Part shown: in pieces, positions 2,558 through 37,800 of the stretch
Layout of the letters: each line of letters begins with the position of its first letter
Position numbering within the stretch: position 1 is the first letter of the stretch
Assembly (NCBI GenBank): GCA_963825865.1
Contig: CAWGVG010000024.1
Coordinates: forward strand, 1 to 37,800
From: an uncultured Nitrososphaeraceae archaeon
GTDB taxonomy: Archaea; Thermoproteota; Nitrososphaeria; Nitrososphaerales; Nitrososphaeraceae
Length of the DNA: 37,800 nt
Reading direction: 5' to 3'
Notes under the pieces: model-generated
Databases searched by the model: none
Told to the model about the DNA's origin: nothing
The model's input: the letters and a program-made list of their open reading frames with translations, nothing else
Made by a program: the position numbers and the translations under genes

Positions 2558-5556
2558 TTGTCAGAAAATATGCTGTATCCTAAAGATGCATTTACACACG
2601 AACATCTAGAATATACAGAGGAACTTTATCGCAGTGGGGTGTTTCTTTACGCATTAGGCAAATACGCCGATGCTATTAGAAATTTTGATAAGGCTATAGA
2701 ATATTGTGAAAAAGTTAATGATGAAAGAAATCTTGCTTCTTTACAAAATAACAAGGGTACCACACTTGATTCATTAGGCAGATATCAAGAGGCTATAGAA
2801 TGTTTTAACAAAGCTATAGAATATTGTGAAAAAGTTAATGATGAAAGAAATCTTGCTTTGTCATTGTATAATAAAGGCTACTCTCTTGGTAATTTGGAAG
2901 AGTATGAAAAATCTAGAAATTGTTTTAATGAAGCTATAGAGCGCTATTATAAGATTAAAGAGAGTGATAATCATTATTTTTTCGATATTGCAAATGCATG
3001 GCGTAATAAAGGCTATGCGATTGCAATGAGCGACGATAAAGATAGTCATAAAGACGCTGATGACTGCCTTAACAGGGCCATAATGGAAGATAACGAATTT
3101 GCTTATGCATGGAATACTAGAGGCTATATTCATAACTACTTTGAGGAATACCATAGAGCAATAGAGTGCTTTGACAAGGCCACCCATCTAGATCCTGAAT
3201 CTTACTTTAGCATGGTATAACAAAGGCTATGCCTATTATTGCATTGGAAAAGATAACATACAATTCAAAAAGGATTGCTTAAACAAAGCCAAGCAATGCG
3301 TCAATAAATCTATAGAGATAGACAAGAACAGTTACTATGCATGGCTTTACAGAGGATATATCCCATTTGAAATAGGTCAATATGAGAAAGCTATAGAAAA
3401 TTTTGACAAGGCAATAGAGATATCTCCTAGAATTGGCGATGCATATTATAGAAAGGGTACTGCTCTTGATTCATTAGGAAGATATCAAGAATCTATAGAT
3501 TGCTTTGATGAGGCTATAGAATGTTTTGATGAAACCTCAGAGAAAGCCAAGAACATGAATTTAAAAGAGAGGAAAATAGTACCATATATAAGAAAATTGT
3601 TTATGCTTGGAATAGTAAAGGAACATCATTTGACTCTCTGGGAAGATATGAAAAAGCAATAGAGTGCTTTGACAAGGCAATAGAATATTTTCAAGTTACT
3701 GTAGAGAAAGATTGTGAATTTGCTTTTGCATGGTATAACAAAGGTTATTCATTTGGTAATGCAGGAAGATATGAAAAAGCAATAGAGTGCTTTGACAAGG
3801 CAATAGAATATTTTCAAGATACTGTAGTTAACAATAAGAATGCGATAGAAAAAAGTAAATTCAAAAGAGACCTTGCAAATGTATGGCGGAATAAAGGTTT
3901 TTCATATGCTAGACTAATGAACCATGAGGTGGCTATAGAATGTTTTAACAAGGCCGTAGATATAGATCCAAGTTTTGCTCTGGCTTGGAATAGCAAAGGC
4001 TATGTTACTATTTATTATTTAGAAAATTTGCAAATGACTATTGAAAATTTTAATAGAGATGAAGTATTAAAAGAGGCTATAGAATGTTTTAACAAGGCCG
4101 TAGATTGCTTTAATAATGATACAGATGAAAAAAGAAGATATAACGATGATAACGTACAAATAGACAAGAATGCATCTTTTGCATGGTATAACAAAGGTTA
4201 TGCTCTTTATTGTTTAAACGAATATGAAAAAGCAATAGAGTGCTTTGACAAGGCTATCGAGATAAATCATAGATATGCAGATGCACATTATAGTAAAGGT
4301 GTATCTCTTTATAGATCAGCAGGATATAATGAAGCAGCATATGACTTTAATAGAAAGACCCTTACACATCTCTACTCATCAAAATTATACCAGATCATAG
4401 ATTGCTTTGATGAGGCTATAGAATGTTTTAGGCAAAATAAAAAAAACAATTTTAAAGACGCAGGAGATGAAGAGGAAAATAAGAATTTTGCTTATGCATG
4501 GTATAACAAAGGCATTATTCTTCATTCATTGGGAAGGTACGAAGAGGCTATAGAATGTTTTGACGAGACATTAAAGATATATTTTAAACTTGATGAAGCT
4601 TGTACAGAAAAGGCATTATTCTTCATTCATTGGGAAGGTACGAAGAGGCTATAGAATGTTTTAATAAAGCTATAGAAAATTTTGATAAGCACAAAGGAAG
4701 AAAAGGCTTGAGACATGAATTGGACTTGTTTGACCTCTATTTTATGAGAGGTCAATGCAAATATAATACTAACTTTCCACGAGCTTTAGATGATTTCAGT
4801 TATATAGATGATCAAAAAATAATTGATAATCGTAAAAAGAGTTTAAAATACAACAATATAGGATTATGCTTTTATCAGCTAGAATTGCAAGAAAAAGCTG
4901 TAGAATGTTTTAACAAGGCCATAGACTATGACCCGCAGTCAGTTTACGCACACTATAACATTGCTGTACCATATAATAACAAAAATGAAAAAGACAAGAC
5001 TAGAGAATCATTAGATAAATGCTTAAACATTGATGGAAACTTCTTTGATGCGAAAGACGCCAAAAAGAAGTTGGAAAGGCCAGAACATGTAGACTGGTAT
5101 AAGTGGTGGTTTGATAAGGGAAGAGGAAAAAAAGTACTTGGTGTAGCAATAATAGTTGCATTGATAACTTTTATAGCAATTCCATTATTAATAACCGAAC
5201 GATTAGTTGAGAGGCCATATTTTGAAGGGAATTCTACCGAACTGACTAATTTGGTTAGTAAAGGTATCAATAATCAAATCATGGCCTGGTTGGTACTGAC
5301 GGTAGGTGTGTTGATTGCAATGTTGCTGTTACCAAATTTACAAAAATTCAAGATGGGAACTGTTGAATTGCAAACAATTCCTATTGATGCTAAAACTGAA
5401 TTTAGTATGAAACCGCATTTAGCTTCTATTGATCCTCCTCCACTTGCTAGTATGCCATTAAAGTATCATGCACAATCTTTTCGTATGCCACTTGCTTATC
5501 AGAGACAACATTTCTTCATGCCAACAGATCCTGTTAGAATGCCAAAGAAATTATGA
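2558..5556 (+). CDS. Long TPR-repeat protein with two C-terminal transmembrane helices (several frameshifts)
   Basis: Recurrent AW(Y/N)NKG...EAIECF(D/N)KAI TPR units across ORFs 2558-3220, 3917-4654, 4600-5556 and the frames between; TM segments VLGVAIIVALITFIAIPLLI and IMAWLVLTVGVLIAMLLLP. Confidence 0.88.
2692..2857 (+). repeat. Intragenic direct repeat of TPR-coding DNA, 120-bp period
   Basis: gctatagaatattgtgaaaaagttaatgatgaaagaaatcttgct occurs at ~2693 and ~2813. Confidence 0.85.
4508..4663 (+). repeat. Intragenic direct repeat of TPR-coding DNA, ~100-bp period
   Basis: aaaggcattattcttcattcattgggaaggtacgaagaggctatagaatgtttt occurs twice (~4508 and ~4609). Confidence 0.85.
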
Positions 5557-5757: not shown

Positions 5758-6160
5758 GGTGTTGTCATCACAGCTGCGAATACTCATGATATGAAGGCTA
5801 CAGCAGAGACGCTTGACTGTATTGTAACAAAAAGAAGGCCTCCTCCTACAAAGAAAAAGAAACAACAACAACAGAATCTATGTCTTGATAAAGGATACAA
5901 CTATCCAGAGATAGAACAGGAAGTAGTCAAGAGAGGATATGTACCGCATATCCGTCAGAGAGGTGAAGGGAAAAAATCAGTTAAGAAAAGAAGACATCAT
6001 CCATCAAGAAGATGGGTTATAGAAAGAACAAATTCATGGCACAACAGATTCAGAAAACTACTGGTTAGATATGAAAAGAAAGCAGAGAATTATCTTGGAC
6101 TAGTACATCTGGCCTGCTGCATAATTGTATACCGTAGGATAATTTTGGGATAGGCTCTAA
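5758..6160 (+). mobile_element. IS5-family (IS427-like) transposase, C-terminal part and right end
   Basis: VVITAANTHDM, LCLDKGY, RWVIERTNSWHNRFRKLLVRYEK motifs; ends ttttgggataggctcta; N-terminal half missing. Confidence 0.88.
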
Positions 6161-6415: not shown

Positions 6416-7111
6416 TCGCCATCATTTGAAAGAGAGTACAATTTAAAATACCTGGGCCTTATTGGAAATGTCTTTCATACAAGAGATATTGAAGCAGCGA
6501 TACAGAAAGGCATGGGGGACAGTCCATCTGAGATAAACGACTACTCCCAGAAATCTATGGGAATAGACCCAGCCTTTGGCTCATCTGCCTTTGGAATTGT
6601 GATAACGCAGCGGGCTGACAACCAGATACAGATAATGCACGCTGAAGAATACCAGAGGCCTGACTTTAACGAGATGCTGTCTGTTGTGTGGGATCTCTTC
6701 AGGAGGTTTGGCAAGATAAACAAGATATACATCGATGGCTCAAACCCGTCATTCATTAGAGCTCTGAAGATACAGATAGGAGAAGATGAAGAATACGAGG
6801 AGATAATAAAGGAAGCAAAGAGCAGAAAGAGAAACTACGAGTTTAGCATGGATGTAGTTCCCGTAAGTTTTGGAGCTGAACACAAATCGATGCTGGGAAA
6901 CTGCAAAATGTTCCTGGAAAGAGAAGGAGGATATATCGCAATAAATCCAAAGTTTGACAAGCTGATAACATCACTGAGAACGGCAGTAGAAGATGATGGT
7001 ATATTAGATAAAGAAGCCACATCATACGACGATATATTTGACGCTTTCAGGCTGGCAATGTGCTACTATAGGTTTACCGAGTCCAGGCGTAGATCGTTGT
7101 TGTCTATATAA
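6416..7111 (+). pseudogene. Terminase large-subunit-like C-terminal RNase H-fold nuclease domain, 5'-truncated
   Basis: Frame open upstream of the 6512 ATG: SPSFEREYNLKYLGLIGNVF; motifs MGIDPAFG, IYIDGSNP, YDDIFDAFRLA; ATPase domain absent. Confidence 0.7.
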
Positions 7112-10782: not shown

Positions 10783-11116
10783 TTCTTGGTATTCGTATTT
10801 CCTTTGAAAGAAAGAAATATTATGTTAATCGCTGAACAATTCCTAAAAAGCCTGAAATAAAAATCGCTTTCTACAGATGGTGGAACTTGGTATCCTCAAG
10901 CTTGTAACTTTTTGAAAAAAATAACGCACCATTCTTGCATTCAGTACATGAGAAAAGTATCATCAGAAAGAACAATTCAGTACAACATTGAGGATAGAAG
11001 AACTGAAAGTTTTGATGACTATTTTCCTTGTAGAAAACATAACTGTAAATTAATGCATATAACCAATTGGTTGAAATTATTTGTAGATATGTATAATCAG
11101 AGAAACTAAACAGGGC
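10783..11116 (+). mobile_element. IS6-like DDE transposase C-terminal remnant with terminal sequence
   Basis: MLIAEQFLKSL, STDGGTWYPQAC, ERTIQY...RTESFDDYFPC; followed by aactaaacagggc. Confidence 0.75.
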
Positions 11117-11139
11117 AAGAGAGATAGCGCTGTTTAGTT
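11104..11139. repeat. 13-bp inverted repeat (12/13 match) with 10-nt spacer
   Basis: aactaaacagggc-aagagagata-gcgctgtttagtt. Confidence 0.85.
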
Positions 11140-11148
11140 GGATGAGTG

Positions 11149-12371
11149 TCAGTCTTCAATGTGGTCGAAAGTAACCATCAGATGCCGAGGACCGCGCAGT
11201 GATGCGTTCTCACGGTAGGGTGGTGGGTCGATGACCAGGCGTGGGGCTACGAGGCGTCGAGTAAGCGTGCTTAACGCGACCAGAGTTTCGAGGCGGGCAA
11301 GGGGGGCTCCAACACAATAGTGAATGCCTCCGCCAAAGCCAAGATGTTGATTGTCAGTACGGTCTGGGTTAAAGTGGTCAGGCTCTACGAAGCGCGCCGG
11401 GTCGCGGCTGCCAGAGGCAAACAGAAGGACCACAGTCGCACCCTTTGGGATAGTAACACCGGCTATATTGATATCAGTGAGGGTCGTGCGGATGCGAAAG
11501 TGCACCGGAGGATCAAAGCGTAGCACCTCTTCGATCGTGCGGATGACGCTATTGGGATCGCGGCGCAACCGTGCCAACGCGTCGGGATAGCGCAGCAGAG
11601 TAAGCATGCTATTAGAAATCAAGTTAACGGTAGTCTCGTAGCCGGCGCCGAGCAGCAGAAACACGGTGGCTAGAAGGTCCTGGTCGTTCATCTGCAAAGC
11701 GGGGTCATGACTGGTCGCCATAGTCGCTAGGCCTGATATCAAATCATCAGCTGGTCTGGCGCGACGTTCGGCGATAAGGCCGACTAGGTATTCCCTCATC
11801 TCAGTGGCGGCTTGTGCCGGCCCGCTCTACCTCAGTCTCACTCACAGCCTGTGCAGGTTCGAGTCTACGGACTAGCACCGGCACCCAAGCTTCGAAGCGT
11901 GGCCTGTCCTCAGGCGGTACACCTAGCATTTCGGAAACAACATCTACTGGCAGTGGGTGAGCAAAGTCATCAACAATATCGAGCTGGCCACGATCACGCT
12001 GAGCATCGAGCAATCGATTCACGAGCTGAGTCACACGGTCATGCATACCTTCGACTCTTTCAGGAGTGAACTCGCGCATTACCAGGCGACGGAGGCGATC
12101 GTGATCGGGTGGATCAAGGAAGATGAAGGGCTGATGTGCTCCCAGATTCGATCTTCTTGGCCAGTTCACCAGGGCCGCGAGTACTCTTGCGTTCATCAGA
12201 ACTGATGCGCGGATCGTGCAACAGTGCTACGATTTCACGATAAGTGCTAACTACATATGTACCATCTTCCTGCTTAGAGACTGGAGTCGCACGCAGTTGA
12301 GAGTAGAGCGGATAGGGATTTGGGCGGTTGGCCGGTTTGAGGATCTGCTCGAACAGGTTCCCCTGATTCAT
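11149..12371 (-). CDS. Cytochrome P450 (bacterial type), frameshifts near 12190 and 11810
   Basis: NPYPLY N-terminus, FLDPPDHDRLRR, GAGYETT I-helix, EEVLR (ExxR), FGGGIHYCVGA heme ligand. Confidence 0.95.
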
Positions 12372-12395
12372 GATCAAATACACCTACCTAGTTCC

Positions 12396-13833
12396 TCATA
12401 AGGGTGGTGGACCTATTGGTACACGCGGATCCTTCATCGTAGCAGCCTCTCCTTTGGCCGAAGGCTCAGGTGTGCTTGGGCCAGGACCTGTTGGTGCTGC
12501 ACCAGGACTGTGGGTAGCATGACCCTGAGGCGGGAATCCAGCAGGGATAGGCCGCAGCTTGACTGGTCCATCGGCAGCGTGCAGCTCAGGAGGAAACGGT
12601 GCCCTCGCTTCAATCAGTGCCTGATAGGCTGGTAACCAGAGAGGTGCATTGACTGCTACTGCGGCCACTATCCGGCCATTCTGACCATAGGCGGCCACTA
12701 AGCGGCGTTCTTCGACCGTTCCCTGTGTGAGTACAACCTCGTCGGCTATGGTCGGTAGGCCAACCGATTTGATGTTGACACCAAACTGATTGGACCAGAA
12801 TGCAGGAAGAGACTTGTGGGGGCGACGATCGGATGGAGCACACACCATGTTGTGGGCTGCAGTCTTTGCCTGCTCTACAGCGTTTCCCCAATGTTCAACT
12901 GAGAGTAGCATGCCATCGTAGAAAGTGTTAGGCCAGCGTGCTACATCACCTGCTACAAAAATGTCGTCAGTCACCATACCGTCCTCGTCAAAGACGCGAC
13001 AGGACGCATCACAGACTACACCACGGGCATCAGCTGCCAACTTCGCGCCATGCAACCACTCTACATTGCGAACAGCGCCCAGCGCAACCACTGCTACGTC
13101 AATGTCAAGCACATCGCCATCAGAGAGTCGAGCACGTCGTAACCGTCCATCCGTATCACCCTCAAGCGCCATGACCGTGACGTTGCAGCGCAAATCAACG
13201 CCATACTGACGCTGCCACATAGGCAGCAACGGCACCGGCTGCCTGACCAAGCGCACCTGCGAGCGGAGCAGGACCGCGCTCAGCGAGAGTCACCTGTAGA
13301 CCGAGCTCACGACAGACAGAGGCCACCTCAGAACCGGTAAACCCACCACCGATGACAAGCACACGCTTCGGACCTGAAGCTAGGCGGGTGCGGAGACGAC
13401 TGCTGTCCTCGCGGGTCCGTAAAGTGAACACTCCATCAAGGGCTGCCTGCTCCCGGTTCACCCAGGGGCGAGCACGCGTGCCGGTGGCGATCAGTAGGCG
13501 ATCAAAATCAACCAATCGCCCATCAGCTAGATGCACCTGATGCTTCTGCCGGTCCAGCCCAGTAGCTGCCACACCCAGAATCCACTCGGCCTGGATATCA
13601 CGCAGTTGCGGCAGAGTCGTGTGGTCTATCGGCAACCATCCAGTTAGGACTGACTTGGATAAAGGTGGTCGATCATACGGCTCCCACGGCTCATCGCCAA
13701 TCAGCGTCAGGTGACCAGTGAAGCCCTCATTGCGCAGTGCTTCTGCAGCCCTCAAACCAGCCAGGGAGGCACCAACGATTACCACCCGATCGATGGGTAC
13801 GAAGCTTGTGGTAACAGATTTACTGTCCGTTAT
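12396..13833 (-). CDS. FAD/NAD(P)H-dependent ferredoxin reductase, frameshift near 13205
   Basis: VIVGASLAG, YDRPPLSK, LIATG, IGGGFTGSEVA, VAGDVA, FWSNQFG; frame open back to an ATA at 13833. Confidence 0.93.
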
Positions 13834-14072
13834 AATCCATCTCCTTGGGTGTCGCTGCGCTTATCTGTCTTTGGTTGTTCGTCAGCATCGCCAATACTTA
13901 TGGCCTGAACTGGGCATGCAGCCGCTGCCCGCTCGACCTGACCACGTAATTCGTCGTCAGGGTTGTAGTCGTATTCGAGCGATTGCTCCCCATGAAAACG
14001 GAACACTTTCGGTGCGGCAAAGACACATTGTCCATAGCTCTGACACCGGTTCAAATCGACGACGATCTTCAT
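13830..14072 (-). CDS. Ferredoxin, [3Fe-4S] P450-partner type
   Basis: VDLNRCQSYGQC...CPVQAI: CxxYxxC(x)nCP motif. Confidence 0.93.
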   Translation of the reverse strand: MKIVVDLNRCQSYGQCVFAAPKVFRFHGEQSLEYDYNPDDELRGQVERAAAACPVQAISIGDADEQPKTDKRSDTQGDGL

Positions 14073-23095: not shown

Positions 23096-24187
23096 TTGTC
23101 ACGCCCTCCTTTCATTAACACTATTGTAGAGGGCCTTGAGTTCATCTTAAGCCATTTTGAAGAACCTATTTGGCCTAGAACCATATCTACACATACTACA
23201 GAAGGAAGGCAGATTTTAGCCTATAATAAAGTGGAAGCAATTGCAAGGTACAAACAAGCCAACCTCCTCGACTGTAGGATAAACGCATATCCAGATTATA
23301 CTGAGTATGGGGGAATTAACAGACAAGCACCTAATTTTTTATTCCTTGATTCAGATAGGTCCACTTTCAGCTCAGAGAAAGCATTTAATGCTGCATTTAA
23401 TAAAACTCTGAGAAACCTCTCCAATGTTTTGGGAGCAAAAAGTCCTGCGATTCTTTGGTCTGGCAATGGTTATCATATCTATCAGCCATTGGGAGCATTT
23501 CCATTAGAACAAGAACAGATGTTCGCGAGTAAATCTGCTGAACCGTCCAAAGAATTCTTGCAGTTTGCCGAACAGTATTTAACAAATTACAATTCAGATC
23601 CATCACATCATCCATCGTTCAAATCGTGTATGCTAAGAATTCCTGGTTCCCATAACTTTAAGCTTGTTCAGAAAAATAATAATGGTGGTGTTACTGATTC
23701 ATCAACTGAAGTAAAAATAAAACAAAGATGGGATGGAATCAGACCCAAGTTTAACCCATTGTTATATCATTTCAATATATGGCTTGCAGATAAAAAAATT
23801 AAGGAGATAAACGAGTCCAGTAAAAGAAGTAAATACAATCATCATAAATACAACGCAACATCAATCAAAAAAGAAATTAAATGGATAGAAATTTTGCTCC
23901 AGACGCCCGTAGAGGATTATAGAAAGAATGCAATATGGCGTATTTTGGCACCATATTTGATTAACATAAAGAACCTAACTTATGAGGAGTCCTATAATAT
24001 AATTAAGGAATGGTTGGACAAATGTAGTTCTCTAAAACCTTTAGATTTTAGTTATAGTTACTACATAAAATATAACCTTAATAGTGCAACAAAAGTTGGA
24101 TACTTTCCTATGAAATTTGATGATTTAAAAGCGGAAAACATCAAGTTGTATAATTTTATGAAGGATAAAATTTCTGATAGAACTTAA
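23096..24187 (+). CDS. Archaeo-eukaryotic primase-like protein with PriX-like C-terminal domain
   Basis: FLFLDSD (DxD), WSGNGYHIY (SGxGxH), LRIPGSHN; C-terminal WIEILLQTPVEDYRK...ILAPYLINIK. Confidence 0.8.
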   Translation: MSRPPFINTIVEGLEFILSHFEEPIWPRTISTHTTEGRQILAYNKVEAIARYKQANLLDCRINAYPDYTEYGGINRQAPNFLFLDSDRSTFSSEKAFNAAFNKTLRNLSNVLGAKSPAILWSGNGYHIYQPLGAFPLEQEQMFASKSAEPSKEFLQFAEQYLTNYNSDPSHHPSFKSCMLRIPGSHNFKLVQKNNNGGVTDSSTEVKIKQRWDGIRPKFNPLLYHFNIWLADKKIKEINESSKRSKYNHHKYNATSIKKEIKWIEILLQTPVEDYRKNAIWRILAPYLINIKNLTYEESYNIIKEWLDKCSSLKPLDFSYSYYIKYNLNSATKVGYFPMKFDDLKAENIKLYNFMKDKISDRT

Positions 24188-24256: not shown

Positions 24257-25343
24257 ATGGTAGGAGATAAAGGGGTTGGCCGTGAGATTCATTTAAAGCG
24301 ACGTCCAGTAGGAATGCCTACTGAAAACGACTTTGAGCTTGTTAAAGTAAATGTTCCAGACCCAAAGGAAGGTGAATTCTTGGTACGTAACATATGGATG
24401 TCTGTAGATCCCTATATGCGCGGACGTATGAGAGAAACTAAAAGCTACATACCTTCATTTCAACTAGGAAAACCACTTGAAGGTGGATGTGTAGGCCAAA
24501 TTATAGAATCAAAAGAATAATCAATTTAAAGTAGGGGAATATGTTTTAGGGAACTTTGGTTGGAGAGAATACTGGCTCTCTAATGGTAGTAGTAGTAGTG
24601 GTAGTATTGGTGTTATGAAAATTGATCCAAAGATGGCGCCAATCCAATGGTATTTGGGAATCTTTGGTATGACAGGCCTTACGGCATATGTTGGACTTTT
24701 AAAAGTTGGGGAACTAAAGGATGCTAATAATAACAATGATAATAATAATACTGCCATATTTGTCTCTGCAGCATCAGGAGCAGTAGGTTCTGTAGTATGT
24801 CAGATAGCAAAGATCAAGGGCTGTCGAGTTGTGGGAAGTGCTGGTTCACAAGAAAAGGTAAAGTGGCTACTTGATCAAGCTAGAATAGATTATGCTTTTA
24901 ACTACAAAGAATTAGGAGAGAATAACAACAATATCTCCTCTGAGCTAAGAAAATCTTGTCCTGATGGGATTGATATCTATTTTGATAATGTTGGAGGAGA
25001 ACATTTTGAGGCAGCCATTGACAATATGAAAGTATTTGGTAGAATTGTACTTTGCGGAATGATATCACAGTATAATGCTACCATTATGCCAGCTGGACCT
25101 TCCAATCTCTTTTTAGCTATAACCAACAGGCTGAAGCTTCAAGGATTTATTGTAAGAGATCATTATGATATGCTAAATGAGTTTTACAGCAATATGTCCA
25201 AATGGGTTAGTGAAGGAAAGATAAAATGGCAGGAAACTGTGTTTGAAGGCTTAGAAAATGCACCTAAAGCTTTCTTAGCACTATTTAAAGGAGAAAACAC
25301 GGGCAAAATGCTTGTTAAGATTGGACCTGATTCAGTTGCCTAA
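24257..25343 (+). CDS. NADP-dependent oxidoreductase (prostaglandin reductase/CurA-like MDR), frameshift near 24518
   Basis: MSVDPYMRGRM, GMTGLTAY, VSAASGAVGS, YFDNVGG, CGMISQYN, GENTGK. Confidence 0.93.
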
Positions 25344-33917: not shown

Positions 33918-34478
33918 CTACAATTTTAGATTATCTGATTTTTGTAAATATGTTGTAATATAGGTCATACCACCTGATATAACTCCTATGCTAAGTAAGC
34001 CTGCAAATGCAGATATAGGTGGAATAAATTGCACCATGACTCCAACATTTGGTTGTAACTGAGAAACAGAAGAAGCACCAGGTCCGCTTGTAATGACTGA
34101 AAGAATCCCAGAACCTATTAACCCAGCAAATATCATAGTTAGTGTTGTGGCAGCACCTCCTACATTCATTCCAACAAGATGAATCCACGCAAGTACAGAT
34201 TTGAATCCACGAATACTCTTTCTCATATCGATTTCAAGGTGGTGGTAAAAAGTCGCTGTGACTGCTATTGCCACTACCAATATCATATAAAAAATATACC
34301 CAAGAAAGAACCATTTAGCTGGACCTTCAAATGACAAAGAGAGGAACTGGATAATATTGATTTTAGAAGAGAATAGTATTTGAATTGAAACAATTGATAT
34401 AGTGAGTCCTGTAATTATTGCACCCTGAATTATTGCAGATATTATAAACCTGTTACTCCAGACTCCATGGATAGACAT
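33918..34478 (-). CDS. Four-TM membrane protein of unknown function
   Basis: Intact 186-aa ORF with four hydrophobic segments. Confidence 0.75.
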   Translation of the reverse strand: MSIHGVWSNRFIISAIIQGAIITGLTISIVSIQILFSSKINIIQFLSLSFEGPAKWFFLGYIFYMILVVAIAVTATFYHHLEIDMRKSIRGFKSVLAWIHLVGMNVGGAATTLTMIFAGLIGSGILSVITSGPGASSVSQLQPNVGVMVQFIPPISAFAGLLSIGVISGGMTYITTYLQKSDNLKL

Positions 34479-34879
34479 ATGATAACGATCTTGATATAAT
34501 TTACAACATGCAAATAATAGTTTCTATGAAATACTGACTTAGATGATAAAAAAAGAATTTCAGAAGATATAGTAATGTAACTCATTAGTGTTCTATTTCC
34601 ACTCCTACTTTCCTGAGTTGCCCGTTTCGTCTGCGTCATATTCAATAACTTCAATGCGAGTATAGGGGCAGGGATAAAAACAGACGTAGAATCTGTTACG
34701 TTAAAGCTGTAGCTGACTTCGCTAAGTATGTTTTATGAATTATCTTAAAAAATTACACCAAAACCTGTATCTTTCCAACCTAAATTGTCATATCAACTCA
34801 AATTTCTATTGCAGTATAGAAGAAGGTTTGTGAATATGAGCAATAGTAGCTGTCAGCTATAAGCCTTGAATTTTTAAGT

Positions 34880-35260
34880 CGTGATTTAAGAACGTAAGTA
34901 ACCTTTCATATACTAAGGCTGTCTTCTCAACGAATGGTGCGTGACCTGCATCCGGTATTTTTGTGCATTGAGATGCTTGGAACTTTTTTGAAATATATCA
35001 GCATAATCGATTGGTTTTAGTGGTATCAATTTATCTTCTTCACCCCATATGATTAAACAAGGAATATCTTCAATTTTCTTGAATCCTTCTGGTTTAATTT
35101 GTGTAGTTGTACTGTTATCAAAGGCTGATGTGAATGCATGTTTTGCCCCTTGCTGCTCAATTATCGCAATAAAAGTATCGACCACTACTGGAAGCAACCT
35201 TGAACGATCCGCATACAAGTCCTCAAATACGTTTTGGACTTTCTTATATCTTAATATCTT
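34880..35260 (-). pseudogene. Alpha/beta hydrolase C-terminal fragment
   Basis: IPCLIIWGEEDKLIP, then in a shifted frame IPDAGHAPFVEKTA. Confidence 0.75.
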
Positions 35261-35564
35261 CTTCGTTTATACTCGCCATTATAAAATTTTTGATATAAAT
35301 TGCACCATTCGTCATTGCTAAGGGTTAAATTTTCAAGGATATCTTTAATTTTTCCACATGATGAGAACGCACGGCAACCTGAGTTGCTTGTAACATTGTT
35401 GTGATGAAAATCTGATTATGACATAGATTATCTACACTGAAATTCTCAACTACGTTTGGAGGACATAAGGCCTTTCCACAACCAAAACTTTGTGAGATGT
35501 ATTTTTATGAATATAGGTTTGAACCGCAAGACTATCTACCTAGCATCTAGACGGCCTAATGTTT

Positions 35565-37229
35565 CTATTTGGATGTATAAGCTTTGTAAATCTCACCCAT
35601 ATCGGGAGCAACATATTTCCAATCATCACCGAGATTTGATACAAGTTCAAATCGTTCCTGTGTATTGGGATGTAATAACTTATAGACATTCTCCCCTACA
35701 GATATTTTGTTAGGACCAGTTATGGAAGTTATCTTTGCTGTTACGTTCATCGTATAACCAAGTATGTCAATTTGTGAGCTCCTGTCGTATCCATATTGAA
35801 CAACTACATTTTCCCCTTCGTCTATACCAATTTTTAACTTCAAGGCAGGGTAATCATATTTACTTAATATTGGATTAAGTCCAGTAGTTAAAACAGTAAG
35901 TATTGATTCTGCACAACGAACTGCCTTATCACAGGTAAGATATTTGTTAAAACCGGAAGGAAAGAATGCTATGACTGCGTCGCCCACGTACTTCAGTACA
36001 AATCCGTCATAACTTTCCACTACAGAGGACATCTCATGTGAAAAAGCCCTGATAATTGTAACCAGTTTATCCGCCGGCAGTGTCATGCTCATTTTAGTAG
36101 AGCCAACTAGGTCTACAAACATAATAACTAGTGATATCTTGGAACTTACGTGTTTACGAAGAAAATCCTGACCACGAAAAAAAAAGGCGTAGCTGTAACT
36201 GGGACTCACCACCTTGCCATTATCCACAATAAGAAATTCTGCCTCGATAGGAAGTCCTCTCATATAACGGGTAAGACTTCCTTTCACTCCTTCAGCGTAC
36301 CGGCTTTGCGCTTCAAGAGTTGTCCCGGAGTAATGAGGTACCATCGCATGATTAGGCATATGCCGCCAGGGATGATCTTTTGGCGCAGGTTCAGGAAACC
36401 ACACGTCACCCGCATAGCCTGCCAGATGACCTTTCTCCAATGCTTCCACCAAGGCTGAAGTATCAACGATTTTTCCTCGTGCACAATTAACTAAATATGA
36501 TCCATTTTTCATGCTGAAAAGTAGGTCATGGTTAAACAGGCCTTCCGTTTCCGGTGTTAATGGAGTGGTAATACTAATGACATCGGATTGTTCAACTAGT
36601 TGTTGTAATGGTGTATATCGTATACCAAATACAAATTCCTCTGCAGTTGTCAGTCGAGGGAGGTTATAGTATAAAATTTTGACGTCAAATGCCTTCAGTA
36701 GTTCGCACACCCGTTGTCCAATTCTACCTGCCCCTATAATTCCAACAACCTTGTCTTCCAAATCATGAGAGTAAGCCGCAATTTCTGCAATATCCCATCT
36801 ACCATCAAGAACCTGTTTGTATGCGGGCATATAGTTTCGCACAAGTGCCAAAATATGCATTACTATCTGTTCTGCGACACCTACGACGTTGCTTCCAGTA
36901 ATCTCAGCCACAGTTATACCTCGTTCTGCCGCTGCTTGCAAATCGACGTGATCAGAACCAACACCAGCAGTTAGAATGAGTCGTAGCATGGGTGCCTTCG
37001 AGATTCGTTCTTTCGTGATGTAGGCGGGCCAAAAAGGAGTAGTGATCAGTATCTCTGTGGTAGATAGATGTTCATCAAGCTTATGCTCTTTGTCAGTCAA
37101 TACAACGAATTCATGGCCCTGTTTTTCGAGAAAATCTCTCAAGCCCAACGCGTTCTCCGCACAACCTAACAAGCCTGGGTTGTTTTTTGCTATCTCTCCG
37201 CCAGGGTAAAGAATCGCTAAAATTTTCAT
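35565..37229 (-). CDS. fdh: NAD(P)-dependent formate dehydrogenase fused in frame to a class III adenylate/guanylate cyclase domain
   Basis: FDH: LLGCAENALGLR, TPFWPAY, AGVGSDHVDL, GSNVVGVAE, GAGRIG, NCARG, GDVWFPEPAP, PHYSG. Cyclase: FVDLVGST, KYVGDAV, KIGIDEG, DILGYTMNVTAKI. Confidence 0.9.
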   Translation of the reverse strand: MKILAILYPGGEIAKNNPGLLGCAENALGLRDFLEKQGHEFVVLTDKEHKLDEHLSTTEILITTPFWPAYITKERISKAPMLRLILTAGVGSDHVDLQAAAERGITVAEITGSNVVGVAEQIVMHILALVRNYMPAYKQVLDGRWDIAEIAAYSHDLEDKVVGIIGAGRIGQRVCELLKAFDVKILYYNLPRLTTAEEFVFGIRYTPLQQLVEQSDVISITTPLTPETEGLFNHDLLFSMKNGSYLVNCARGKIVDTSALVEALEKGHLAGYAGDVWFPEPAPKDHPWRHMPNHAMVPHYSGTTLEAQSRYAEGVKGSLTRYMRGLPIEAEFLIVDNGKVVSPSYSYAFFFRGQDFLRKHVSSKISLVIMFVDLVGSTKMSMTLPADKLVTIIRAFSHEMSSVVESYDGFVLKYVGDAVIAFFPSGFNKYLTCDKAVRCAESILTVLTTGLNPILSKYDYPALKLKIGIDEGENVVVQYGYDRSSQIDILGYTMNVTAKITSITGPNKISVGENVYKLLHPNTQERFELVSNLGDDWKYVAPDMGEIYKAYTSK

Positions 37230-37800
37230 ATGAAATCAATTCTGAGTAGATTAGTTAAATCTTCCTAGAATGATGATTAAACAAGGAGAAATGACCATAC
37301 TACCTGAATCTCATAAAGTTTGACGGAGTTTTAAGAGTAAAACGTTTGACCAGCCGTTTCTCTTTTATCTTTATTCATTTCGTCATCCGCTCTAATCCCA
37401 TATTGTGTTTTCAACTATAGCAAACTGTGTTTGTCAATTGTCAATAGATGAATGTTCCATCTGCTTGGTAAAAGAAAAAACCTAGAAATGTACAAAATAG
37501 GGGCTCATAATTGAATTGAGACATTCGGAGTAGTGTCAACTAACGATTCTTTGTTTAAACGTGCTCCAATGATCCGGATTAGCTTCAGATAAACCTTCTA
37601 TTCACACCGATATTTTATATTAAAACATCTTGCGACGGGTGGTGTTTAACTTTAAATGCTAACGGTTATATCGAGTACTTTCAAAAAAGCTCCAATTTCA
37701 TTTCAGGCTCATATACATGAAAATATTTAACACGTCTGGGCTTCCATAGTCCGTCGACTCGAACAAATTTGCGTATGGTACCAAGCCCTTCGTCAATTTT

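Follow-up and report, generated by a model that had tools for sequence, protein, structure and literature searches.

The stretch of DNA analysed here (the window; 37,800 nucleotides) is the entire contig C24 of a genome assembly from an uncultured archaeon of the Nitrososphaeraceae (GCA_963825865.1, contig CAWGVG010000024.1), a family of soil ammonia-oxidising archaea; the assembly comprises 4.98 Mb in 62 contigs and is rated 82% complete. Its minus strand carries, at positions 35565-37229, a single open reading frame (ORF) of 554 codons and a stop, read without interruption, as an earlier note made from the letters of this DNA alone had described. The gene encodes an NAD-dependent formate dehydrogenase (FDH) of full length, which continues in frame into the catalytic domain of a class III nucleotide cyclase. 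The earlier note knew of no such fusion, and our literature searches likewise found no description of an FDH-cyclase architecture. The gene and its parts are laid out as follows.

35565..37229, minus strand: whole chimeric ORF, 554 codons and stop.
36186..37229, minus strand: FDH half, residues 1-348, corresponding to a stand-alone FDH minus its last two codons (K-T/G) and stop.
36177..36185, minus strand: joint, nine T on the coding strand (T9) encoding FFF, residues 349-351; unlike either parent, and T9 or T8 among the copies.
35565..36176, minus strand: cyclase segment, residues 352-554 and stop, with 97-99% nucleotide identity to the 3' end of 460-residue cyclase genes.
About 35643-36131, minus strand: Pfam match to Guanylate_cyc, inside the cyclase segment.
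35510..35564, minus strand: 55 nt of donor cyclase 3' flank carried along, recognised by homology to the donor gene.
37230..37272, minus strand: 43 nt of parental FDH 5' flank, with a TTTAAC box 25-30 nt before the ATG.
35456..37297, minus strand: shared core of 1,842 nt, 98-99% identical to the fused metagenome contigs L020, L025 and L027; the flanks beyond it differ or are mosaic.
33998..37800, no strand assigned: overlap, at 98.1%, with bases 1-3,784 of C3, another contig of this assembly, where the copy has A8 and the gene is split.

By inference only, the TTTAAC box is taken as a putative promoter.

Profile searches and a structural alignment bear out both halves. Pfam recognises 2-Hacid_dh_C at residues 123-300 (189 bits) and 2-Hacid_dh at residues 32-326, while the NCBIfam family NF005750, 'NAD-dependent formate dehydrogenase', is matched with 472.1 bits against a cut-off of 329, over residues 18-347 and profile positions 47-382 of 386. 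The same half aligns end to end with a solved plant FDH of 351 residues (3jtm; residues 2-345 on 4-350, E 3e-115). Guanylate_cyc (PF00211) matches residues 367-529 with 53.3 bits, above its gathering threshold of 21.9. Pfam, NCBIfam and the 3jtm alignment thus confirm what the earlier note had read from the sequence, a full-length FDH running into a class III cyclase core. Where sources give these fused proteins a name at all, it is plain 'formate dehydrogenase'. An Rfam scan of the window returned no match and a search of the ESM Atlas no usable one.

On the plus strand the joint is a run of nine A (A9; 36177-36185), to which the earlier note had drawn attention; it is the sole A/T run of at least nine bases in the window, and the 4.98-Mb genome holds 102. 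The same assembly contains a second copy, since the last 3.8 kb of C24 and the first 3.8 kb of C3 overlap at 98.1% identity; within the gene the two differ by nine substitutions and one indel, A9 against A8, which splits the C3 gene. The simplest reading is two strain variants of a single locus, assembled together, although a true duplication is possible. Eleven metagenome contigs reach the joint, nine with T9, one with TTCTTTTTT (in frame, still FFF) and one with T8; in contig L024 a synonymous T>C change interrupts the run without loss of frame. Taking the metagenome contigs together with C24, C3 and three copies from two further genomes of the family (one in G073, two in G085), the joint is in frame in 12 of 16 DNA copies and frameshifted in four. 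A 90% protein cluster comprises 530 members; among the 15 listed, seven proteins of 554 residues and one of 553 are all fused, and the remainder are four stand-alone FDHs of 351 residues, one T8 form of 360 residues and two fragments. Logan contigs cross the joint without a gap in the DNA runs X4 (35922-37297) and X1 (36088-37237) and in the RNA-library run X16 (36119-37246), which come from three studies, and no indel was reported across the four runs examined. The check across the junction that the earlier note had proposed therefore came out in favour of the frame, with gapless contigs of three runs spanning 36177-36185 and the run keeping frame in most copies. In a further RNA run, X15, no contig covers 36132-36239, and one contig leaves the window at 36131 into paralogue-like sequence.

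With T8, the FDH frame reaches a stop after 12 further codons, which cuts off the cyclase. In the trees the T8 copies do not group together: C3 stands beside C24, L035 beside G073 and L026, and G085 apart, and the length of the T run must therefore have changed at least three separate times. Reading the cyclase of the T8 form as a separate, overlapping gene was rejected, as its sole start codon, M371, lies inside the first strand of the domain.

Both parents of the fusion can be identified, and the breakpoints located. The stand-alone FDHs of relatives end in SPSYSYAFK(T/G/…) and a stop, the DNA of a near-identical form reading GCC TTC AAG ACA TGA. The donor cyclase P0003 reads RYQYNTSIK/RGQDFLRKHVSSK around the breakpoint (slash), with the DNA ATA AAG/CGT GGT CAG. 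At the joint of the fusion the DNA is GCC-T9-CGT GGT CAG, and the T run occurs in neither parent. Homology to the FDH parent extends over 37272-36184 and homology to the donor over 36176-35510, that is, 55 nt beyond the stop, so that the pieces are 1,089 nt of FDH (43 nt of 5' flank and codons 1-348) and 667 nt of cyclase (the last 203 codons and 55 nt). Read-through at the native locus does not account for the fusion, since the fused gene has none of the flanks of the stand-alone FDH loci around it; instead, two pieces of genes came together at a new site. Loss of the stop codon at the native FDH locus was rejected on the same grounds, as was a simple join at the AAG common to both parents, which would yield AFKRGQ rather than a T run. 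A Pfam search of the neighbours of the stand-alone FDH locus found nothing.

Maximum-likelihood trees were built for each half; in both, the fused copies group into a single clade adjacent to the sampled parents, indicating a single fusion event. Both parents persist at 96-99% nucleotide identity in a sister genus, as a stand-alone FDH of 351 residues and a cyclase of 460 residues; they occur together, at 90-98%, in the genus g5 genomes G179, G201, G208 and G206, and also in the unpublished genome G184, on which this statement does not depend. It is a single, very young fusion, with at least 94% protein identity within its clade.

The FDH half closely resembles the stand-alone archaeal FDHs of 351 residues (e.g. 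P0122; 93-98% identity), and these and 3jtm have the same NAD motif and the same catalytic Arg and His. The GxGxxG NAD motif that marks members of NF005750 is present as GAGRIG at residue 166, and the catalytic R251 and H299, which we take to be the equivalents of Arg284 and His332 in PseFDH numbering, are present in all 16 fused copies. Apart from the replacement of the last two codons and stop by the T run and the cyclase, the fusion differs from these FDHs at residue 280. All 16 of 16 fused copies have Glu at this position, whereas the FDHs (six of six stand-alone loci, and 3jtm) carry a Gln (Gln313 in PseFDH) paired with the catalytic His. When this Gln is mutated to Glu, PseFDH reportedly stays active with a shifted pH profile. 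Glu280 is also found in the unfused FDH fragment P0125 and is therefore independent of the fusion. PMC9013435 describes the His332-Gln313 pair of PseFDH as important, and the pair is also named in PMC6303947. At codon 280 (window 36392), one RNA-library contig of run X15 carries a Gln variant at depth 14.1 of 30.5, which places a stand-alone-type FDH beside the fused type in that sample.

For the cyclase half, the best solved match is CyaC of Spirulina platensis (PDB 1wc0; 53 bits). In this alignment D373 and D417 fall on the metal-binding positions and K413 and D488 on the adenine-binding ones, and N495 is followed by K499 at the position of the CyaC Arg. The residues listed in the earlier note (both metal Asp, the Lys and Asp, and N-x3-K for N-x3-R) accordingly hold. 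The metal Asp pair and the adenine Lys and Asp are intact in all fused copies covering them; of the transition-state pair, the Asn is present as Asn495 and the Arg is replaced by Lys499. Since Lys is invariant at this position in all 119 aligned homologues of residues 344-554, the replacement is a trait of the whole archaeal family and not specific to the fusion. The Asn495 position is Ser in 17 of the 119 homologues, which belong to the Nitrososphaeria cyclase family. We know of no member of the archaeal Lys-for-Arg family that has been assayed for activity.

Among known systems, CyaC shares the metal Asp pair, the Lys and the Asn with the fusion, but has Thr where the fusion has Asp488 and Arg where it has Lys499, and its catalytic domain follows sensor domains that have been conserved across great evolutionary distances. 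That an N-terminal domain with an enzyme fold can be attached to a class III cyclase has a precedent in the mycobacterial LipJ (Rv1900c; PDB 1ybt, NCBIfam NF058673), which has a hydrolase-like domain and a cyclase. Matches to it from the fusion are weak, the N-terminal folds are unrelated, and a score of 21.8 against a cut-off of 800 makes the fusion a non-member of NF058673. In the Nitrososphaeraceae, the 460-residue class III cyclase P0003 belongs to a cluster of 189 members, and its last 203 residues show 97% protein and 97-99% DNA identity to the fusion segment; the two have 55 nt of 3' flank in common and the same catalytic residues, including Lys for Arg. Missing from the fusion are about 250 N-terminal residues of this parent, comprising two repeated modules, a charged spacer and a helix (...TLSTQRQDRFWDALKERYQYNTSIK). 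One source names some of these 460-residue cyclases 'class 3 adenylate cyclase / YlmC with PRC-barrel domain'; Pfam recognised no PRC-barrel in the N-terminus of the parent cyclase. The metagenome contig L024 contains an in-frame tandem duplication of about 108 nt (window 35687-35794, the D488/N495/K499 region) that gives a 589-residue ORF and could be an assembly artefact.

AlphaFold2, run on a 47-row alignment, folded both halves with a mean predicted local distance difference test score (pLDDT) of 91 and a predicted template modelling score of 0.67. The sole stretch below pLDDT 50 is residues 348-350, at the joint, and the relative placement of the halves in the model is therefore left undefined. 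The fusion removed the N-terminal modules of the parent cyclase together with most of the helix that precedes its catalytic domain, of which only RGQDFLRKHVSSK remains. The conserved helical linker that joins sensor to catalytic domain is consequently absent, the parental helix having been deleted.

Among 238 genomes of the family (a tally that includes the unpublished genomes G184 and G250), 42 contain a match at E<=1e-100, and in 41 of the 42 the match includes the FDH half, in some cases partly. The fusion itself is carried by three of the 238: G000 (genus g1), the source of the window; G073 (genus g2), in frame and at 94% identity; and G085 (genus g2). With regard to the architecture search that the earlier note had suggested, two other species-level genomes carry the fusion, in frame in G073 and frameshifted in G085. 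The latter has a frameshifted full copy and a second copy, also T8, that starts inside FDH (window 36647). This second, 5'-truncated copy (L102; G085:C1, about 903.8-905 kb) runs from window 36647 onward through its T8 joint, with a DDE transposase gene about 1.1 kb upstream and an IS630/IS481-like helix-turn-helix ORF 240 nt downstream. No further FDH was found at E<=1e-100 in G000, G073 or G085, which for G000, 82% complete, is weak evidence of absence. The same holds for the donor cyclase, of which G000 has no close copy, its best paralogue being 62% identical. Short FDH fragments do lie outside long ORFs in G000, at C49:61709-61774 (66 nt, 98.5%), C31:1493-1550 (58 nt, 93%, measured against fused metagenome loci) and C12:56104-56265 (about 162 nt, 83%).

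A search of 1.84 billion representatives gave no match to both halves among its best 150, more distant dehydrogenase-cyclase fusions scoring below about 160 bits falling outside these 150. Eight long candidates checked among the representatives had no cyclase domain, and all three Pfam domains occur together in just one of 120 listed homologues. The architecture is thus found in one clade of at least 94% identity and not across diverged lineages. The flanks beyond the core, which is about 1.84 kb long, sort into several mosaic groups whose breakpoints are nested. Transposase genes are present 1-6 kb from the module, both in G073 and beside each of the two G085 copies. One breakpoint lies inside a divergent neighbour gene at 37275-37330. 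At this place the plus strand carries the start of a small gene (ATGACC...), of which about 25 nt are common to most fused loci; further on the loci diverge, L020, L025 and L029 continuing into a membrane-protein-like ORF and the window into a stub of 17 codons.

To measure selection on the two halves, distinct changes were counted against the fused-clade consensus in 16 copies, and the expectation without selection was built on the observed mutation spectrum. The FDH half has 62 synonymous and 49 non-synonymous changes in the fused copies (ratio of non-synonymous to synonymous change, pN/pS, 0.24) against 38 and 16 in the parents (0.13; Fisher p 0.09). The cyclase half has 37 and 63 (0.49), against 25 and 9 in the parents (0.10; Fisher p 0.0003). 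The difference between the cyclase and FDH halves is seen inside one and the same set of contigs (p=0.009), which means that the cyclase excess is not due to sequencing errors; the parent genes compared with each other give p=0.81. In the FDH half, 49 non-synonymous changes were observed where 81.9 are expected without selection (P=4e-11), and no stops where 4.9 are expected (P=0.007). T8 and T9 copies show the same ratios, and the catalytic positions of both halves are intact in every copy covering them. The FDH half is clearly maintained under purifying selection; the cyclase half is maintained only weakly.

The explanation we favour, at roughly even confidence, is a recently born chimeric gene that is bifunctional, with FDH under selection and a cyclase tail that is expressed with it and weakly maintained. 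FDH would be the selected cargo, and the cyclase domain, without its own N-terminal modules, would be made from the FDH promoter as a C-terminal appendage. As a dimer, FDH would probably bring the cyclase into an obligatory dimer, and cyclic AMP (cAMP) would be made in step with FDH expression rather than through allosteric sensing of formate or NAD(H). Selection on the cyclase would be weak, and slippage in the T run would repeatedly remove it.

Several points weigh against this explanation. The spread between genera rests on binned genomes, though the G085 contigs concerned are 613 kb and 2.2 Mb long, and the metagenome contigs are not all independent, L025 and L027 being 99.9% identical. 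The RNA-library contig of X16 over the joint hints at transcription and could also stem from contaminating DNA. An earlier count, on 13 copies, gave higher pN/pS values for both halves (0.46 for FDH and 0.74 for the cyclase). Young clades inflate pN/pS, so the true relaxation of the cyclase is probably less than five-fold, and the constraint on this half, with its lack of stops, is as compatible with a useful or even regulated domain as with one that is tolerated. Finally, long U tracts promote transcription termination in archaea, according to PMC8716108, and the T9 run may end many transcripts at the joint, lowering the yield of fused protein.

The main rival, possible though rather unlikely in our judgement, is that FDH alone works and that the cyclase tail is a tolerated, inactive appendage in the course of being lost. 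Such a passenger would fit the rise of the cyclase ratio from 0.10 to 0.49 while the FDH half stays at 0.24, the frameshift at the joint in four of 16 copies, with the ratio for the FDH half of these four unchanged at 0.26, the loss of the cyclase's N-terminal modules and the gene debris that fills the surrounding regions. It fits less well with 63 non-synonymous changes in the cyclase half where 73.8 are expected without selection (P=0.011), no stops where 3.4 are expected (P=0.03), and six catalytic positions that are all intact. Moreover, one copy has its T run interrupted by a synonymous substitution and stays in frame, and AlphaFold2 folds the cyclase domain confidently.

The earlier note had proposed that the enzyme may serve as a ligand or redox sensor, coupling one-carbon metabolism to cyclic-nucleotide signalling, with the FDH driving the cyclase. 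In an evolved sensor-cyclase of this kind, ligand-driven closure of the FDH dimer would alter the pairing of the cyclase domains, and formate or NAD(H) would control cAMP synthesis. The direct attachment of the cyclase to the FDH C-terminus by a very short joint is compatible with such coupling, as are the retention of all catalytic residues, the lack of stops and the purifying selection that is left; but the parental helix before the catalytic domain was deleted, no transducer-like linker was gained, and relative to the parent the cyclase half has lost constraint five-fold. Glu280, which is fixed where FDHs have their catalytic Gln, could be a sign that catalysis has given way to binding, yet the unfused P0125 has it too. 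The frame is kept in most carriers, but it was also lost at least three separate times, and the architecture is restricted to one young clade in three of 238 family genomes, with both halves in none of the best 150 representatives. The sensor proposal thus found no support here, and we regard it as doubtful.

Alternatively, the T8/T9 run could act as a switch, through slippage in DNA or transcription or a -1 ribosomal shift, that yields either FDH or the fusion and ties cAMP to formate/NAD(H) turnover. Long A/T runs are given as a cause of transcriptional slippage in PMC1088944, and the U UUU UUC of the T8 form reads as a classical site for a -1 shift, by which the cyclase frame would be regained. 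We give this idea little credence; if true, it would be a phase-variable link between one-carbon metabolism and cyclic-nucleotide signalling in an ammonia-oxidising archaeon. Lastly, a homopolymer miscall or a chimeric assembly of two separate genes might be suspected from a nine-base joint, a position at the contig end and a second copy in the same assembly (C3) with eight bases and a split frame, but the in-frame joint recurs in 10 of 11 metagenome contigs and in G073, three runs belonging to three different studies have gapless contigs across it, and the copies are separated by substitutions and hence distinct sequences, which makes an artefact extremely improbable.

The rest of the window is gene-poor and contains the following fragments and ORFs.

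2558-5556: TPR fragments.
5791-6153: DDE transposase fragment.
6512-7111: terminase-like ORF.
11149-11799: C-terminal P450 fragment.
12396-13256 and 13195-13785: pyridine-nucleotide-disulphide reductase, split over two frames.
23096-24187: PriX primase-domain (primase X) ORF.
24615-25343: alcohol dehydrogenase fragment.

With its low coding density and many short ORFs, the region 1-35000 looks like a variable island rich in mobile elements. Positions 11001-14000 have 53-58% G+C within a window of 36% G+C and look like an acquired, decaying P450 system; ribosomal RNA was considered for this segment and rejected, as Rfam gave no match.

In summary, the value of this gene lies in gene birth more than in signalling. 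Nature still offers for sampling both parents, the precise breakpoints, alleles in and out of frame and a truncated secondary copy, which makes selection on a newly fused domain directly measurable. The fusion also adds to an expansion of class III cyclases in soil Nitrososphaeraceae that has been little studied (PMC13577086).

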